DNA of 64,000 nucleotides from the NCBI GenBank assembly GCA_963826715.1, contig CAWGYA010000006.1, forward strand, positions 128,001-192,000, given 5' to 3'. The notes beneath the pieces were generated by a model. That model was not told the DNA's origin, searched no databases, and saw nothing but the letters and a program-made list of their open reading frames with translations. This DNA is from Candidatus Bathyarchaeota archaeon. GTDB lineage: Archaea; Thermoproteota; Bathyarchaeia; Bathyarchaeales; Bathycorpusculaceae. This document shows positions 35,607-43,690 of this stretch, in pieces; position 1 is the first letter of the stretch, and the number at the start of each line of letters is the position of its first letter. The position numbers and the translations under genes were made by a program.

Positions 35607-35975
35607 CTATAGTGTTTTCTTGAATTTTTTTCTTTCTTTTAGCTTGCCAAACCTCAAAGCAGCCCTAATTAACCGTTCGAGCGCTTCAAAATCAGTGTGC
35701 TGAATTGTCCGCTCTTCTTGGACTATATAATTACCTTTTTTGGCCTGGACAACGAAACGTTCGAACTCGTCCTCTAAAATATCCCGTGTCATTATTAGTG
35801 AACCATTGAGTAGTCGACGCTCGCACGTAAGACAGTATTCGAAATCAAACCCGACCTTGCGCCCCTTCGAGTTTCCTTCGCCAAAGTATTTAGTGTCTGA
35901 GAGCTTGATGAAGTTAACGTCGTCGAATTCTATGAAGGAAACGTGGGTTTTTTTGGTTTGGTGCTTATGGCGCAA
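35607..35975 (-). CDS. hypothetical protein
   Basis: ORF track; no recognised motif. Confidence 0.5.
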   Translation of the reverse strand: MRHKHQTKKTHVSFIEFDDVNFIKLSDTKYFGEGNSKGRKVGFDFEYCLTCERRLLNGSLIMTRDILEDEFERFVVQAKKGNYIVQEERTIQHTDFEALERLIRAALRFGKLKERKKFKKTL

Positions 35976-36117: not shown

Positions 36118-38523
36118 CTATGATCTCTTTTCCAAAACCAATTTTTCGTTGTCAAACATGTATTCGCCGAATCTTGTTGTGTAATAGACCCGAAGATATT
36201 CTGCTGCGAACTGTGGACTAAAAGGAAGATCTGAAGGTACTAGCTTCTCTTTTTCTCTCAGGCGTTCTGTTATCGCTGCTTCCGCCACCGGATAATTCAT
36301 AAGCAACTCTTTACGCTCTGCATACGCCGCCACCGTTTGCACTGCTTCAGCAATGTAGCTTAAGTAAAGAGGAAGACTCTCCATGATTTGGTTTATACGT
36401 TGCCCTGTTGGGTTACTCATCTGCTGCGTAGCTATCTCCAGCCGCTCCCTAAGTGAACCATTTTTCTGCCACATATAATCTTTAGTGGGCAAAAGGCGCT
36501 CTATGATTTCTTCATCCGAAACCATCTCGTTGTATAACATCAAAAGAACGTCGTTTGCCATCTCAATAAAACCCATTACATCATCATGTAAGGAAACCAG
36601 GTCTAAAACATCAAGGTTGATTTTTTCTGCGCGCATTTGAGCAGTTAATTTCATATTCTCAGCTTTCTTTGCATAACCAAGTACCTTAGTGGTCTCTTCG
36701 CCGAAAACCGCAGGCAAAACCTCGTTTTGGCAACTCAAATCCGCGATAGGTTTTAATGAAGTCTGCAGATACCTCAATGTAGCTTGGATATCCTTGCCAT
36801 ACTGGCGTTTCCAATTGTTAACTGCGTTATAAAGAGCCTCAACTGCGCTCCAAGGCGCTTCCTTCTTCTCCAGTTTCGCGTTAGCAAACTCCACTGCGTA
36901 ACTTTTTGGCGGCAACGATTGATCATAGAGGGGCCGAATAATATTGTATATTGGTTCCACTGTAGTTGAAACTTCTCTAACAAGCACCACTCCCGCATCC
37001 AAAATTTGTTTTGTTTTTTCTAAACGCTGCTCCAAAGGCAAATCTTTCTGAAAATCAATTATAGCTGAGGTTTTGATGTCTAAACCTGCAGCTTTAAGTT
37101 TTCCAACCCAATTGGAAAGTTCTCCCATAGAGTAAATTTGGTATTCAGCAAGTATGACGTTGAGTTCATCTTCAATTGCATCGCGATCTTTTCCAAGCAG
37201 ATCAAGCGCTAAGAACCTGTCATTTATGTCAGCTTGGCTTAACTCGTGCAAAGTTGCTGCCTTCAGAACCTCAGAAACGGAATCTTTAAGCACCAATGCT
37301 TTGCCTTGAGGTGAAGTTATAACCACGGGGCAACTGTTTTTTACAAGTTCAATTTGACTTTCGAGCAACACGATTTTATCGAGCAATGCTTGAGATTTGT
37401 CGATAATCTCCTGGTTTGTAGCCTGTGGTTTAGGTGCTGGATCAATAAAAAGCACAGGCAAAGTCAACAGCAGTGTACTAAATATTCCCAAAATTATCGT
37501 TGTGATCCCCACATCAGCAGTAAATGCTAATGGCTTCTGAAGAGAATATAATAAAACAAAGAAAATAGCTGCTGCAACGGTTGCAGTGAAGCAGGAGAAG
37601 AACTTGTCACTTGATCGCAAAATGCCCTCGCTGACCAACAACCGAGTGAAGAAAATCAAAGCTAACGCAAGTCCAGCAATAATAACAATAAACATGACTA
37701 TACCTGGAATTGAATCAAGATACTGTGAAAATGCATCAGCAAGGGTTCGTCCATTCCAATTAGGAATCCAGGTTAGCTGTCCAGCAATGTCAAAGATGAA
37801 TTTTGAAGTGTCATACAACCTGAATTGCGTAATGGAAAGTGTAAGGTCCTTGGCAATGTCGCTTAATGAGACAAATAATGGAGGAGCCGCCCCCGCCTGA
37901 ACCCACCAGTCATCTCGAACAATATTGATAACAACGTATTGATAGTACTGCACCAACTGAAGAGGAACAGAAATCAAAACATAGTAGACTACAGTTAAGC
38001 CAACGTATTTTTTGAAGAATACCGCTGAAGCAATAATTAGGGGAATAGCCAAAAAATAGATAGGAGCATAAAAAAGCGAAATAACAGCGAGTATCCCGAA
38101 ATCTATAGCGAGAGCGCTTTTGTAACGATTAAAAAATAAAGGTAAACAAATAAACAACGTCATCCAAACAACCAGAAATGCAACACGAACAGTTGTATCC
38201 CCTAAAAACGAAATGAAATATAGCTGTGAAAGATGATAGAACAAACCAAGCCCCAATATGGCACCTCCAATTGGCATGCCAAAGCTAGGTTTTCTGTAGG
38301 TAGCAAAAGCCACCAAAACTGCAATCAAAATTGGCAAGGGCTGAGGAAATAGTGAAAGGTATGACATCCCCAACGCCATTGCAATTACAGTGATTAGGAA
38401 AGTAAGTAATTTTATTCCTTGGGTTTCGGTGCTGCGCAAAAGTGCCTCTTTTTCCTTTGCTTTTTTCTTTCGATTCTGATTCCAAGAATTTATCTCAGAG
38501 AGCTTAAACGAGGGCTTTTTCAA
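36118..38523 (-). CDS. polytopic membrane protein (~9-10 TM) with a ~440-aa soluble helical C-terminal domain
   Basis: Hydrophobic segments in residues ~35-360, then a helical/coiled-coil-like region. Confidence 0.75.
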   Translation of the reverse strand: MKKPSFKLSEINSWNQNRKKKAKEKEALLRSTETQGIKLLTFLITVIAMALGMSYLSLFPQPLPILIAVLVAFATYRKPSFGMPIGGAILGLGLFYHLSQLYFISFLGDTTVRVAFLVVWMTLFICLPLFFNRYKSALAIDFGILAVISLFYAPIYFLAIPLIIASAVFFKKYVGLTVVYYVLISVPLQLVQYYQYVVINIVRDDWWVQAGAAPPLFVSLSDIAKDLTLSITQFRLYDTSKFIFDIAGQLTWIPNWNGRTLADAFSQYLDSIPGIVMFIVIIAGLALALIFFTRLLVSEGILRSSDKFFSCFTATVAAAIFFVLLYSLQKPLAFTADVGITTIILGIFSTLLLTLPVLFIDPAPKPQATNQEIIDKSQALLDKIVLLESQIELVKNSCPVVITSPQGKALVLKDSVSEVLKAATLHELSQADINDRFLALDLLGKDRDAIEDELNVILAEYQIYSMGELSNWVGKLKAAGLDIKTSAIIDFQKDLPLEQRLEKTKQILDAGVVLVREVSTTVEPIYNIIRPLYDQSLPPKSYAVEFANAKLEKKEAPWSAVEALYNAVNNWKRQYGKDIQATLRYLQTSLKPIADLSCQNEVLPAVFGEETTKVLGYAKKAENMKLTAQMRAEKINLDVLDLVSLHDDVMGFIEMANDVLLMLYNEMVSDEEIIERLLPTKDYMWQKNGSLRERLEIATQQMSNPTGQRINQIMESLPLYLSYIAEAVQTVAAYAERKELLMNYPVAEAAITERLREKEKLVPSDLPFSPQFAAEYLRVYYTTRFGEYMFDNEKLVLEKRS

Positions 38524-38567
38524 GCAATTTACCTAAACCTTATTTTAAGTAAACTCACTTAAAGCTT

Positions 38568-39992
38568 ATGCAGGTACCTCGGATGAAAGACGAAAAAGGC
38601 TCCTTTAGTATACTAGCAAGCATCGAAAAGCACATTGAATCGCTAAAACCGCTACAGGCTAAACAAGCAATAATTTGCATCGGAGAATACCCCATAAAAG
38701 TTGTTCTAAAGGAGCCAAACGTAAACCGAAATGGCATTCTGCCTATCTTTATGGAAAAATCTAGCGATGATATTTACAAATGGATACCCAAAGGATATGA
38801 ACCGTATTTGGTGATTGGTTTTGAAGAAGCAAAAATAGACACCCACTTCTGGTACAACGTACTGCCCACCATCGCACAGGATAACTCCATCATTGATAGC
38901 CTAAAGAAAAAATCCGCCGAGAAGCTTCGAGGGGCAATGCTCTTCGCCACCATCTCAGACGGGATTGGGAGCGCCGCTGTGCCAAGTTTAATATCTAAGT
39001 TTAAGGCTCAAAACATCGATACCCTATCAATCGCAGTTATGCCCGCCCAGATTCAACCAGCAGATGCTCACTTTAATGCTTACTCAACGTTGCAAATATG
39101 TTTGGCAACAGAAGGCTCTACATTATTACTTTTAGACAGAGACTATTTGGAGACTTTCGATGGTGTAGACAGAAAAGGTATACAGCTCAAAGGCAACACT
39201 GTTGTCAATTATCTTTTGAACGTCTTTTTGGATAACGAGCTACTGGTGCAGGAGGTGGCTGAGTTGTCAAGAACTTTCAACGTTAAATTATTTGGTGCCT
39301 TAACAGTTACAGCGGCAAGCTACAAGATTTATGGTTCACTCAAGAATATGCTTAACGCTGCGCTACTAAAACCGCTTTCAAAATTTGATTTATCAAGCGC
39401 CTCGCTACTTTATGTGCTCTTGCGTATGCCCTTACAGTTAAGAGAAAAAATTCCAAGAGCTCAGATCGAGCTAGAAATAACAAAGTGGTTTAAAGAAAAA
39501 ACAACTCTCCAATCTATTCACATATCTGAGCCAGTTTACACAGATGATAACAGCGACCGCATTGATGCTGTTCTCTTAATTGGAGGCTTTGACACTAACA
39601 AGATGTTTGCAGAGGTAGAACCTAAGCTTCAGAAACTCAAGCGAATAGCTGTAGAAAAGGGATATATGACTGAGAATTGGAAATCTCTAATCAAAATCGA
39701 AGAGAACCTCAATCCTAAAACCCCACATACAATAGAACATCCTCAAAGCATTGTTGAAATATCAAACATAGAAACCAAATCTGTTCCTATTCACAACGCA
39801 AAAGAGGTTAGAACAAAAACTATTAATAAAAACGCTAAAGAAGAAAAAACCCTCAAACAGAAAAAAATACAGCGAACAAAAAAAACCAAAGTCCAAAAAG
39901 AAACTACAACCGCAAAACAGCTTGAAACCACCGAAACAGGAGTACCATTGAAGCCTCAAAGGCGTAAAAGAACACGAAATTCTAAAGTTTGA
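38568..39992 (+). CDS. degenerate tubulin/FtsZ/CetZ-fold protein with a Lys-rich tail
   Basis: IICIGEYPIK (T1-like), FATISDGIGSAAVP (degenerate GGGTGSG), IAVMPA..FNAYSTL, LLLLDRDYL, AALLKPLSKFDLSSA, DRIDAVLLIGGF. Confidence 0.7.
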   Translation: MQVPRMKDEKGSFSILASIEKHIESLKPLQAKQAIICIGEYPIKVVLKEPNVNRNGILPIFMEKSSDDIYKWIPKGYEPYLVIGFEEAKIDTHFWYNVLPTIAQDNSIIDSLKKKSAEKLRGAMLFATISDGIGSAAVPSLISKFKAQNIDTLSIAVMPAQIQPADAHFNAYSTLQICLATEGSTLLLLDRDYLETFDGVDRKGIQLKGNTVVNYLLNVFLDNELLVQEVAELSRTFNVKLFGALTVTAASYKIYGSLKNMLNAALLKPLSKFDLSSASLLYVLLRMPLQLREKIPRAQIELEITKWFKEKTTLQSIHISEPVYTDDNSDRIDAVLLIGGFDTNKMFAEVEPKLQKLKRIAVEKGYMTENWKSLIKIEENLNPKTPHTIEHPQSIVEISNIETKSVPIHNAKEVRTKTINKNAKEEKTLKQKKIQRTKKTKVQKETTTAKQLETTETGVPLKPQRRKRTRNSKV

Positions 39993-40048
39993 ACCTAAAA
40001 AACTTGATTTAACAAAAAGTTGGGAGCAGATGAACTGCTTCAGATAGA

Positions 40049-42739
40049 TTATTTTTTATTGCTATTGTTAACTACCGGTACATATCCGCTGCTTTGATTG
40101 ATTTCTTTGATGATGTTGGTTGCATGTACGCCATGTTCAAGCAGATAAGAACGAGAAAGATACCTTTCGAAATCATTAGATTTACTGTAGAGTAACTGCA
40201 TTTCGTCGAAGGATTCCATATCTTCAGGTTTTCCGCGTCCACCAACTACAAGTACTCTGGTTATCCAAGGATCTCGAGATTCCACGACACGAACAGTGAT
40301 AGTTCTGGAAACTTCACTTGTAACGTAGCCTGCCAACGCAGTATAAACTTCCTGCGACATATCCTCAGTCCACATTTTTGGTGGAGTGGAAACAGTTACC
40401 CAGATATAGTCGGTTTTGTAAGTTGGCTTGTAACCCAAAATTGTCGGAGTCTTGAATGAGCGAACAACACTTTTTATGTAGTCTTTGAAGTGATCCATGT
40501 CTAAGATATCTTTGTAGATTAAGTCGTGGGTTAAGCCCTCTTCTTGGTCCGTGAGTATCTTGAAAATAATTTTCAGTTGTTCGCGTTCTGTCAAGTCCGC
40601 AGATTTTTCGAAGTACCGTTTAGGTGAAGCTATTTGGGTCATCTTCGCCGTGTATTCGGAGTAGGCATCAACAATTTTGTTTAAACGTTTACGGTATTCA
40701 GAGGTTAATTCAAAACGTCTAGCCAACTTTTCGTAAAGCTTTATGGTACTGTCTACTTTGGCAAGGTTCTCGAGGGCAATAGCTTCCTCTTCGGCTATTC
40801 GTCTAATGTCTAGATCAATATTCATCAATTGCTCGCGTGCATATCGTTTAGAGCCAAAGAATTTGCGCGCTTGCACATCCAACTTATGTTTATCGAATTC
40901 TTTACGTTTCTTAACTTCTGCAACACGCAAAGCTTCATTGTCGAGAACACCTCGTTTCTGCAAGCGCTTAGCTAAAATTTCATTGATGTATGTGAGGTGC
41001 TCATCAATCATCTTGGATTCGTCGCTGGGTGTACGAAGCATAAGCTGTATTACGAGATAAAGCGTTCCAAGTTCTTTTTGAATATCATGTAACTCTTGCA
41101 GTTCCATTTCGGATTCAGGCAGAACCTCGTAGTAGCGGATAAGTGCATCAGTTAAATAGCGAGTTTCATCATAGAATTTAAGTAGATTGAGGGTTTTCTC
41201 GGCGATTTCAGTGATGTTCACCAAGTCATCAAGAACTTTCTTTTGGCGAAGCGTGAATACTTGCGAGCTGGGGATAAGCTGCTTTAAGCGCTCAAGGATT
41301 TCAGCTTTGCGTTCCGAAAAATCCAGATGTGTTTTTGTTAAGTTTGTAAGTAGGGCTTCTAAGTTGTTCACTTTTCGGGAGCCCTCCTTGCGCAGTGAAA
41401 GATTGATTATGGCTTCTTCAATAGGTCCTATTTTACCCATTAGTTTTATGGTTGAGAGGAATTTCATTATATCCTCTATCCAGTTTCTAGCTTGAATCTC
41501 GATACCTTTTACGTGCAGTGCAATGTCCTCTTCAAGTCGCGGATTGCTATTGACAACAGTCTTTAGTTTCTCCTCAAATTGTTCCTCATTGAAGGTTCCG
41601 CTTTTTATGAAATAGTTTTTGAATAGTTCACGCACAACGTCATTGTCAACTTTGACAATGCTATCTATTTCATCGATAATGTTGAGCTTTTCTTTTCTGG
41701 ATTCCTGCAAAAACTGCATGCCTTCAAAGTTAAGTTTGAAAGCGGCAATATAGTCTTCAACTGGATACATCACTTTAACCATGCCAAGAGTATGTGTTGA
41801 ATTGGTTGTTAATCCGACCTCGGTGCCGATACCACCCATCAAGTCTGCTAGGTCAAAGTCCATAAGAACATAGAGTAAATCAACAACCATGGCATCCATT
41901 TCTTTTCGGGCGCTTACGATGTTACCGACTTTTGAGAATGCTGGAAGTAACGGCAAATAAATTAGGGCATTGAGGGGGTTTCGATAGACATCACCAAACA
42001 CTTTGCATACGTATTCATTGTAATCTTTGTTTAACAATAAAGATAGCTCATTCATAGCAACAAAGGCTGAGCACCCTTTTGCTGGAGGGTCATCTCCACC
42101 ACAGGGGGTAATCACAAAGGCAATTATAGGAACACCTGAACCTAAAACCTTACGCAGGTGTCTAGAGAAATCAAAGAATACACCGCTACCTGTGCCGCCG
42201 CCTAAACCGTAAACCAAAGCAACTGTTGGCGTAACTATTGATGAAAGCGCTTGCTCTTTGAAGGCAGTGATGCAGTTTTTAATGATACCGAGTTGGTAAT
42301 AGTTCAAAGCGTAAATAGCTTTAGCAAGTGCACGTCTTCGCCCAGCACCACCCGCCATCGGAGGAACCGCCATTGTTGATTGGAGCCAAGGAATATAAGT
42401 TGCAAGTTTTGCGCCCTCATTGGTGACGTATTCTCCGTATTTTTGGTTGATAAAGTCAAACATTGCTTCTGCTGTTGGGAACTTGACAGATTCGGCAATT
42501 AGCCTCATGCGTTCTTTGGGTACACCTGCTTTTGCGAGGGCTTTAGAGATTTGAGCGTGAGTTTCCTGAAGACTACGGATTTCTGGATCAGCAATGTCGA
42601 TGGCTAACAGAGAAAGACGTGTTAAGTCGTTCTCTATTAATTCCTTGGTTTTTTTGTTGGCTAAGAAGGTTTCAACAATATTTGTGCCTGCTGAACCCAA
42701 ACCAATCAGATGAACACTATTCTGGTAGATTCTCGTTGT
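40049..42739 (-). CDS. tubulin/FtsZ-superfamily GTPase with a long coiled-coil insertion
   Basis: VHLIGLGSAGTNIVE, LLAIDIAD, GGAGRRR, YGLGGGTGSG, VITPCGGD, DFDLADL. The frame is open from 42739; the first TTG (42700) lies inside the T1 motif. Confidence 0.85.
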   Translation of the reverse strand, partial: TTRIYQNSVHLIGLGSAGTNIVETFLANKKTKELIENDLTRLSLLAIDIADPEIRSLQETHAQISKALAKAGVPKERMRLIAESVKFPTAEAMFDFINQKYGEYVTNEGAKLATYIPWLQSTMAVPPMAGGAGRRRALAKAIYALNYYQLGIIKNCITAFKEQALSSIVTPTVALVYGLGGGTGSGVFFDFSRHLRKVLGSGVPIIAFVITPCGGDDPPAKGCSAFVAMNELSLLLNKDYNEYVCKVFGDVYRNPLNALIYLPLLPAFSKVGNIVSARKEMDAMVVDLLYVLMDFDLADLMGGIGTEVGLTTNSTHTLGMVKVMYPVEDYIAAFKLNFEGMQFLQESRKEKLNIIDEIDSIVKVDNDVVRELFKNYFIKSGTFNEEQFEEKLKTVVNSNPRLEEDIALHVKGIEIQARNWIEDIMKFLSTIKLMGKIGPIEEAIINLSLRKEGSRKVNNLEALLTNLTKTHLDFSERKAEILERLKQLIPSSQVFTLRQKKVLDDLVNITEIAEKTLNLLKFYDETRYLTDALIRYYEVLPESEMELQELHDIQKELGTLYLVIQLMLRTPSDESKMIDEHLTYINEILAKRLQKRGVLDNEALRVAEVKKRKEFDKHKLDVQARKFFGSKRYAREQLMNIDLDIRRIAEEEAIALENLAKVDSTIKLYEKLARRFELTSEYRKRLNKIVDAYSEYTAKMTQIASPKRYFEKSADLTEREQLKIIFKILTDQEEGLTHDLIYKDILDMDHFKDYIKSVVRSFKTPTILGYKPTYKTDYIWVTVSTPPKMWTEDMSQEVYTALAGYVTSEVSRTITVRVVESRDPWITRVLVVGGRGKPEDMESFDEMQLLYSKSNDFERYLSRSYLLEHGVHATNIIKEINQSSGYVPVVNNSNKK

Positions 42740-42742
42740 CTA

Positions 42743-43690
42743 TCACATCCCGACTATTCTTTTTAGTCTATCCTTAACAGATTCCAAGTTAGTTGACATT
42801 GCACGGTCAAGTCTTGCCGCACGCATTGTTAGACCCTCTAAGTCCTTAATTTGATCTTCAACAACCAATTGGAAATAACTTATTTTGCCGCGGGCTCTTA
42901 GAAACAAAACTACAAACACTACTGCTATTGCCGCTGTTACACCGACAATTGGCAAAAAGAGCATTTGCAAAGTTGAGCCTGCTGGCACTCCAGTGGTATC
43001 CAAGCTATCTAGCATTATGAGTGCACCGTCAACGTCACCAGTGTTAGCCACTTCTTGGGCTGCATTAAGACCATTACTATAGAGTTCTATAAAATACTGA
43101 TCCACGCCATTATCAATCAATGACTGCAGTTTATCCTCTTTTTGGCTAAGTAGTGTTAAGAAATTATCCATTTTTGCGCTAGTTGCAGTAATTGTGATTT
43201 TATCAAGGGCAACTCCACCCGATGGACCAAATAAGCTAAGAGCAGTCAGGGATTTAGTGTTGTTGCTACTTGTTGGAACTTTTCCGTATAATGTAATAGT
43301 AAATTGCCCAGCAACCCAGTTAAACTCTGTAGAAGCTGTGTTGGGGCTGAATGCTGAACCTAAATCATAATCTGATGTTTCGATTGACCAATATGGACCT
43401 GAAGTTGGTTTCAACAGACCTGAAGTAAGTTTAAGATTACCGGAACCAGAAGCAATGACGTTAACGTCAAAAGTTACTTTTATGCTAGCTCCAGGCAAAA
43501 TTGGTGAGTAACTATCTGTTCTATTTGTGCTTGGGTTATATTGCGCTAGAAGCTGGTTTGTCTGGGCATCATAGATTGAGAAACTTGTTATCCAACTTCC
43601 TTCCCCTACACCTTGAACAAATGTTGTTTGAGTTAAAAATATGACAGTAAGTATTAGGATAATGCTTGAGGCTAAGATCTTTTTTTTCAT
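42743..43690 (-). CDS. secreted beta-rich protein with C-terminal TM anchor and cytoplasmic coiled-coil tail
   Basis: Signal peptide; S/T-rich beta domain; helical stalk; TM LFLPIVGVTAAIAVVFVVLFL; tail EDQIKDLEGLTMRAARLD. Confidence 0.75.
   Translation of the reverse strand: MKKKILASSIILILTVIFLTQTTFVQGVGEGSWITSFSIYDAQTNQLLAQYNPSTNRTDSYSPILPGASIKVTFDVNVIASGSGNLKLTSGLLKPTSGPYWSIETSDYDLGSAFSPNTASTEFNWVAGQFTITLYGKVPTSSNNTKSLTALSLFGPSGGVALDKITITATSAKMDNFLTLLSQKEDKLQSLIDNGVDQYFIELYSNGLNAAQEVANTGDVDGALIMLDSLDTTGVPAGSTLQMLFLPIVGVTAAIAVVFVVLFLRARGKISYFQLVVEDQIKDLEGLTMRAARLDRAMSTNLESVKDRLKRIVGM

Follow-up and report, generated by a model that had tools for sequence, protein, structure and literature searches.

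Background

The FtsZ-like protein FtsZl1 (Pfam PF13809, Tubulin_2) was predicted in 2010, from gene context, to be the core of membrane-remodelling operons, and Makarova and Koonin held, in the excerpts of their paper considered here, that it does not serve cell division (PMC2875224). According to the same excerpts, the T6-H7 region of FtsZl1 could not be identified (PMC2875224). Other publications, likewise cited from excerpts, call the FtsZl1/Tubulin_2 proteins divergent and uncharacterised (PMC9871819, PMC9723716, PMC5898192). In the operon described for Methanosarcina acetivorans, the gene for the membrane-associated protein A2 (MA2710, 164 amino acids (aa)) is followed by the FtsZl1 gene (MA2711, 1039 aa) and then by the genes for a membrane-associated P-loop GTPase (MA2712, 559 aa) and for A1 (MA2713, 821 aa) (PMC2875224). 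For the Bathyarchaeia, the excerpts mention non-canonical FtsZ-like sequences with an undetermined role (PMC9723716) and a single bona fide tubulin (PMC13394414), which is unrelated to the genes treated here. Here we describe a cluster of four genes, A to D, on a stretch of 64,000 nucleotides of a Candidatus Bathyarchaeota archaeon (assembly GCA_963826715.1, contig CAWGYA010000006.1, positions 128,001 to 192,000), hereafter the window. The cluster encodes a candidate FtsZl1-type GTPase (C), a second tubulin-fold protein with degenerate nucleotide loops (B), and two membrane proteins (A and D). Full-text searches of the literature returned no paper describing this module.

It is moderately probable that the cluster represents a lineage-specific system centred on FtsZl1, a predicted membrane-associated cytoskeleton of the tubulin superfamily that would act apart from FtsZ division. 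The original prediction for this locus, made from the sequence of the window, had proposed much the same: an active and a dead tubulin-fold protein accompanied by two membrane proteins. This pairing is supported by the motifs of C and by the fold of B together with its degenerate T1 and T4 loops. Its further step, to one membrane-spanning machine with a role for each of the four proteins, is conjectural.

The four genes were found at the coordinates first assigned to them. D and C lie in the same frame and are separated by TGA TAG, A and B are divergent with a gap of 44 bp (counted from the listed start of B), and C and B are convergent with a gap of 56 bp. Since all four open reading frames (ORFs) are kept in 30/30 other fetched loci, they are genuine genes and not chance ORFs. 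The genome of the window comprises 2.64 Mb and is 96% complete.

The FtsZl1-type protein C

C is encoded on the minus strand (40049-42736 from a proposed ACG start; listed TTG start at 42700) and has about 895 aa, compared with 883 aa as listed. It matches PF13809 with 43 bits, above the gathering cut-off of 27 bits, and with 54.7 bits when the stop-to-stop frame, including the stretch upstream of the TTG, is used. By this profile match, C is a member of the FtsZl1 family. It consists of an N-terminal tubulin-like GTPase domain, a middle part of about 400 aa and a conserved C-terminal domain, an architecture that would match the available part of the 2010 description, in which an extended coiled coil precedes a C-terminal globular domain (PMC2875224). 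The middle part (residues ~350-750) is, judged by composition only, rich in helix-favouring residues and poor in Pro and Gly. The N-terminal regions of C from 30 Bathyarchaeia have a mean column identity of 73%.

The nucleotide-binding loops of C are well kept. T1 reads GLG[SG]AGTN in 37/37 aligned sequences (27 from Bathyarchaeia and 10 from Chloroflexota), and T4 reads GGG[TS]GS[GS], with the core GGG[TS]G present in all 37. The sequence GLGGGTGSG is invariant in C of 30 Bathyarchaeia, and the Chloroflexota proteins carry GGGSGSG or the near variants GGGSGGG and GGGSGSS. With T1 and T4 kept, C is apparently an active GTPase.

The T7 loop of FtsZ has the consensus NxDxxD. About 110 residues past T4, all 37 aligned C sequences have the motif [ND]FD[LP]xDL, whose [ND]FD..D part is probably T7-like, as it resembles NxDxxD and stands at the expected T7 spacing. 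The keeping of a T7-like motif sets C apart from FtsZl1 as portrayed in the excerpts of the 2010 paper (PMC2875224).

The C-terminal 240 aa of C are conserved; they gave no profile link to the B family, no sequence match in the PDB and no match in the Atlas. Similar proteins with tubulin matches at both ends around a coiled coil are described, in the part of the preprint consulted, for Borg elements (10.1101/2024.11.05.622173).

The second tubulin-fold protein B

B is encoded on the plus strand and has 474 aa as listed, from the first ATG at 38568. In five orthologues from the genus (L034, L035, L036, L041, L042), a stop codon follows right after this first ATG, and B therefore most likely begins at the second ATG, giving coordinates 38583-39992. 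The database protein for B has 469 aa.

Taken alone, the sequence of B gives weak evidence of its kind. Both C and B fall below the cut-off of PF00091 (33 bits), and B reaches 19.3 bits. The best sequence match of B in the PDB is CetZ (3zid, E-value (E) 8.7e-4). The B family is small: 109 matches at E<=1e-3 were obtained with HMMER against 1.84 billion representatives. Distant full-length relatives of B do pass PF00091 (P0168 with 49 bits, P0210 with 53 bits), as does the Chloroflexota B of locus L106 with 33.6 bits. These distant full-length relatives carry an N-terminal, zinc-ribbon-like C..H..C..C pattern, which a strict regular expression also recovered in 7/10 Chloroflexota B proteins.

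The AlphaFold model of B, computed from an alignment of 25 rows, has a predicted local distance difference test score (pLDDT) of 86.5 and a predicted template modelling score (pTM) of 0.84. A Foldseek search with this model returned CetZ, TubZ, FtsZ or tubulins for all of the top 50 matches, the best being CetZ with an E of 1.8e-15; the CetZ structures matched were 3zid, 4b45 and 4b46. The tubulin/FtsZ fold that had been proposed for 38568-39992 is thus borne out by the structure search. VIA gave Z-scores (Z) of 28.8 for OdinTubulin, 28.2 for BtubA and 27.1 for CetZ. In these matches about 325 residues are aligned with a root mean square deviation of 3.2-3.6 Å, and values of Z between 27 and 29 are to be read as ties. 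Because of the quality of the model and of the Foldseek and VIA matches, B is a complete two-domain tubulin/FtsZ fold. Between the sequences of C and B, no more than about 70 columns, around T4-T5, can be aligned.

In the B of the window, T1 reads GEYP and T4 reads SDGIGSA. Both loops are degenerate in 27/27 aligned Bathyarchaeia orthologues, 3 of the 30 archaeal rows having been excluded from the motif alignment, whereas both are canonical in 10/10 Chloroflexota sequences. The acidic catalytic residues of T7 follow the consensus NxDxxD/E. This acidic pair is absent from the aligned segment of archaeal and bacterial B alike, with the T7 position set from the alignment and the secondary structure of the model rather than from superposition. 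From the loop sequences we infer, on good grounds, that archaeal B is probably dead in the sense that it cannot bind GTP.

The C-terminal tail of B (residues 386-474) is basic and of low complexity, with 23 K/R against 9 D/E in 89 residues. In some B orthologues, a comparable stretch of low complexity is placed at the N-terminus rather than at the C-terminus.

The membrane proteins D and A

D (42743-43690, minus strand, 315 aa) is predicted to be a bitopic membrane protein, with a signal peptide or anchor at residues 5-23 and a transmembrane (TM) helix at residues 244-262. Between them lies an acidic ectodomain of about 220 aa, and the protein ends in a tail of 53 aa that is its best-conserved section. 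D is kept in 30/30 Bathyarchaeia loci and in 9/10 Chloroflexota loci. A Pfam scan of 30 members detected no recurrent family, and an Atlas search with D returned solely its own unnamed family.

A (36118-38523, minus strand, 801 aa) is a predicted polytopic membrane protein. Its N-terminus is basic, and residues 35-358 hold about 8-10 TM helices; by sequence, about 8 hydrophobic segments lie in residues 39-360. Behind the TM part lies a domain of 440 aa with long helices (residues 370-783). The model of A has a pLDDT of 84 and a pTM of 0.48, and it gave no Foldseek match in the PDB at E<=1e-3. A wide VIA search returned generic helical bundles only; the best match was a designed three-helix bundle with a Z of 12.7, a value too low to carry meaning for helical proteins. 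A is kept in 30/30 Bathyarchaeia loci and in 10/10 Chloroflexota loci. None of A, B and D passes the cut-off of any Pfam or NCBIfam family. Because of the charge distribution, both the tail of D and the helical domain of A are probably cytoplasmic. The region between the divergent genes A and B (38524-38582) is short and A/T-rich, and presumably holds the promoters of both.

The D-C junction and the start of C

C starts 0-3 codons past the stop codon of D, or overlaps it, in all of the 31 loci that were read, an arrangement by which D is translationally coupled to C. A read-through fusion of the two proteins was considered and rejected: eight loci, the window included, have two consecutive stop codons, and in four loci the frames of D and C differ. 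No fusion of D with a longer protein turned up when one was searched for, which is weak evidence.

The listed TTG start of C (42700) cuts the conserved first strand of the protein, for which reason the frame was extended to the ACG at 42734-42736. A comparison of loci L033-L042 and L073-L092 showed that the window and 12 further loci of family f1 have no ATG, GTG or TTG ahead of this strand. The ACG is kept in 15/15 loci of this family, two of which have an additional GTG or TTG a few codons upstream. In other families this position is taken by an ATG or TTG that follows the D stop codon immediately or overlaps it. This pattern suggests that C is (re)initiated, coupled to D, at a near-cognate ACG.

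Conservation and linkage of the module

The order and orientation D-C-(B inverted)-A is kept in 10/10 loci of the genus and in 20/20 loci of other genera and families (f1, f7, f24), the latter having been chosen through B matches. None of these 20 loci has the flanking genes of the window. Identity to the window over the fetched loci is 50-83% for C, 27-64% for A, 26-66% for B and 28-58% for D.

Co-occurrence was also scored in a sample of 301 Bathyarchaeia genomes, with cut-offs of E<=2e-67 for B and E<=1e-30 for C. Strong B was found in 49 genomes, C in 54 and both in 47. B without C occurs in two genomes (G167, G232), whose completeness is 75-76%. The original prediction had staked itself on such co-occurrence, and the synteny over the fetched loci and the sampled genomes agrees with it. 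Among the seven genomes with C only, three belong to genus g62 and have a colinear D-C-A-B'; in two with fragmented assemblies (G189, G297), the open frame of C is shortened, to 539 and 762 aa; and two belong to family f17, where no recognisable partner was found in the one that was scanned (G071, locus L192). In the g62 layout (L190, L191, L193), D-C-A-B' lie on one strand, with no inverted B and no X, the fifth gene described below. The B' protein has 346 aa, is very divergent and matches the B profile weakly (E 1e-5 to 1e-7).

Relatives of B with the zinc ribbon occur in metagenome-assembled genomes of the Chloroflexota class Dehalococcoidia, in 14/301 genomes of that class. Ten Chloroflexota loci show a colinear operon D-C-A-X-B, with all five genes in 9/10; D was not detected in the tenth, L129. 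The X protein, of about 330 aa, is unlike tubulin and belongs to no Pfam family. In an iterated profile search, X stands right after A in 18/20 Bathyarchaeia loci outside the genus and before D in one more (L078). The same kind of search found no X in the 10 loci of the genus. The genome of the window has an unlinked X-like gene (G000:C8:814658-815566, corresponding to L134:659-1564). Further stretches related to X lie at G000:C8:812444-812707, which is shorter, and at G000:C5:28862-29443. The set of four genes as first proposed thus holds in that all four are real, but most lineages have X as a fifth, which is unlinked in this genome.

Over the 36 other genomes of the genus, C and X occur together in 16, C without X in 7, X without C in 4 and neither in 9. 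These genomes are kin and no statistics were applied to the counts; X tracks C loosely in the genus. When X was scanned for known domains, one of nine X proteins gave sub-threshold matches resembling PH, GRAM or Vps36-GLUE (E 0.03-0.08), and a PH/GRAM-like nature of X is a lead only. The N-terminal extensions of some B proteins were considered as a possible form of X and rejected, being of low complexity and not X. The genes of the module are inherited as a unit, X included in most lineages.

Tubulin-superfamily proteins of about 455 aa from other Bathyarchaeia (L093-L104) form a separate family, with an intact GGGTGSG and no A, C or D among their neighbours.

Distribution and genomic surroundings

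C was found in 24/61 genomes, namely in 23 of the 36 other genomes of the genus and in none of 24 genomes that represent 11 further families of the order. In 13 of the 36 congeners, several of which are 96-98% complete, the module was not found. In one complete genome without it (G014), the flanking genes are the same and lie about 2.2 kb apart. The site is thus variable within the genus, and the module is an insertion or deletion there.

A quick maximum-likelihood tree of C, with 37 rows and no outgroup, separates 10 Chloroflexota from 27 Bathyarchaeia sequences with an SH-aLRT of 100; L077, L081, L087 and L092 were dropped owing to split or cut matches. The part of the tree with the Bathyarchaeia tracks taxonomy. 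The tree fits one old transfer between the domains, followed by vertical descent and loss.

The 12 flanking ORFs encode regulators and geranylgeranyl-reductase-like, flavodoxin, GHMP-kinase-like, cytidylyltransferase-like and ECF-S-like proteins. They are metabolic or regulatory, and a Pfam scan of them found no division gene, integrase, transposase or phage gene, in line with the first description of the locus as free of flanking cell-division genes. An ORF of 122 aa at 35607-35975 is also present at the module-less site of G014 and therefore lies outside the module. The canonical FtsZ of the same genome is encoded on another contig (G000:C2:148696-149190, 127 bits), which agrees with the proposal that the system is separate from FtsZ division.

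Comparison with known systems

The module shares several features with the described FtsZl1 systems. The pair MA2710/MA2711 is paralleled by D and C, in that the FtsZl1 gene is immediately preceded by a gene for a membrane protein to which it is coupled; by position, D resembles A2 of M. acetivorans, and by size (about 800 aa) A resembles A1, the likeness being one of position and size only (compared with excerpts of PMC2875224). As in those systems, membrane association is predicted and a normal FtsZ is present in the same genome. Unlike in the published FtsZl1 operons, the partners in the module are B, A, D and X.

B resembles CetZ in that CetZ gives its top sequence and Foldseek matches. 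Both are two-domain proteins of similar size, and neither serves division. B differs in lacking GGGTGSG and an acidic T7 and in always standing beside an FtsZl1 gene, and it is probably not a GTPase.

Like alpha/beta-tubulin, BtubA/B and the Asgard AtubA/B, heterodimers in which one site hydrolyses the nucleotide and the other does not, C and B are encoded by paired genes, one nucleotide site of the pair being compromised. The model of B matches heterodimeric tubulin structures with a Z of 27-28. In contrast to the heterodimeric tubulins, the two partners are very unequal, C having 895 aa with a long, putatively helical insert and B about 380 aa.

FtsZ of bacteria is tethered to the membrane by ZipA, FtsA and EzrA. 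As with FtsZ and tethers such as SepF of archaea, the module encodes a soluble tubulin-like GTPase together with membrane proteins bearing probably cytoplasmic helical parts that could tether filaments. In the sequence and fold searches, A and D nevertheless showed no kinship to the known tethers, and the role here would not be division.

Interpretation

We infer the physical assembly and function of the module as follows. C would polymerise head-to-tail in a GTP-dependent manner, and its putatively helical middle part and its C-terminal domain would be linked to the membrane via the tail of D and the helical domain of A. B, which probably does not bind GTP, would serve as a non-catalytic co-subunit, a cap or a regulator. 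The ectodomain of D would link this structure with the cell envelope. The system would probably serve to remodel the membrane or envelope locally, or to control cell shape, rather than to carry out essential division.

Several observations weigh against a cytoskeleton of this kind. Presence in 54/301 sampled Bathyarchaeia makes the module dispensable, and at the site in G014 it is replaced by an ORF of 574 aa resembling a GH5 cellulase (L141:4926-6650). In three genomes, C is in pieces with in-frame stop codons (G023:C5:207821-210408, G002:C7:242053-244667, G015:C15:48246-48843); these broken genes may be decaying copies, or assembly errors. B has an upstream region of its own and is read from the strand opposite to the other genes, the T7 of C is assigned by motif and spacing alone, the soluble domain of A matches generic helical bundles only, and neither A nor D has a Pfam family. 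None of the partners known from FtsZl1 operons (vWA, OmpA-like, protein kinase, P-loop GTPase) was found among A, B, D or the 12 flanking ORFs. PF13809 occurs in 54/301 sampled Halobacteriota genomes, and among the neighbours of FtsZl1 in 18 Halobacteriota loci the profiles detected neither D nor X, and A with a single marginal match (E 5e-5).

Because these Halobacteriota loci have no recognisable A, D or X beside FtsZl1, D-C-A-X-B is a distinct subtype of FtsZl1 system, so far seen in Bathyarchaeia and one class of Chloroflexota only. The novelty claimed by the original prediction is thereby narrowed: it holds for the subtype with B, A, D and X, but C belongs to FtsZl1, a family that was already predicted in 2010 (excerpts of PMC2875224).

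In two of the 18 Halobacteriota loci, a gene that matches PF00091 and encodes about 300 aa lies some 1.7 kb from the FtsZl1 gene, on the same strand (L173:12133-13029, L180:12222-13160). Other subtypes of FtsZl1 may therefore also have a second tubulin-like partner.

A more far-reaching version of the scheme, in which C and B co-assemble, is rather unlikely as a whole. Here C would hydrolyse GTP, B would be a nucleotide-free structural subunit, the polymer would be clamped to the membrane by D and A, and X might be a lipid-binding adaptor. The result would be a membrane-spanning two-tubulin cytoskeleton that evolved independently and was exchanged once between Chloroflexota and Bathyarchaeia, with archaeal B becoming a pseudo-GTPase after the transfer. 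A complex prediction of C (residues 1-345) with B (residues 6-380) scored 0.00 and, having been run without controls, counts neither way.

The patchy occurrence of the module (24/61 genomes, 54/301 Bathyarchaeia and 14/301 of the bacterial class), its insertion or deletion at a variable site with some copies decaying, and its sharing by two domains would also suit an accessory system that arose from mobile elements or from conflict, rather than a housekeeping cytoskeleton. It might be a tubulin-based device by which an integrated element is segregated or positioned, or a defence against viruses. We consider such an origin quite unlikely: none of the six proteins scanned matches PADLOC, the flanking ORFs are free of integrases, transposases and phage genes, and no DNA-binding partner of the TubR kind is found among A, B, C, D and X. 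Moreover, the quick tree of C splits the Bathyarchaeia and Chloroflexota clades cleanly, and its Bathyarchaeia part agrees with taxonomy, as would be expected after old vertical descent with losses. It is very unlikely that the module is an auxiliary or alternative division apparatus made of FtsZ paralogues. Two tubulin-superfamily proteins with membrane anchors do recall FtsZ with its tethers, but a canonical FtsZ is encoded elsewhere in the genome, no division genes are adjacent, and nearly complete congeners are among those in which the module was not found. Makarova and Koonin used the same argument for FtsZl1 in general, as stated in the excerpts (PMC2875224).

B could also stand outside the system, as a decaying CetZ-like gene that merely happens to lie between C and A. 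Its position on the opposite strand, its degenerate GTP motifs and its conservation, the lowest of the four, would be explained in this way. This is highly improbable, as the frame of B is open in 30/30 fetched loci and its fold is modelled with high confidence, B lies beside C in three families of Bathyarchaeia, and its homologue is the last gene of a colinear operon both in Chloroflexota and in g62. Besides, 47/49 genomes with B also have C.

The FtsZl1 proteins are among the most divergent of the tubulin/FtsZ superfamily. For them, the module provides a compact list of five strictly co-inherited proteins, in an archaeal and a bacterial version. It adds to the FtsZl1 subfamily a putative T7-like motif, a probable cytoskeletal operon shared between two domains, and a conserved non-canonical ACG that may serve as a start codon at a coupled junction. 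As bacterial B is apparently GTP-competent and archaeal B degenerate, the role of the second subunit would be directly testable.

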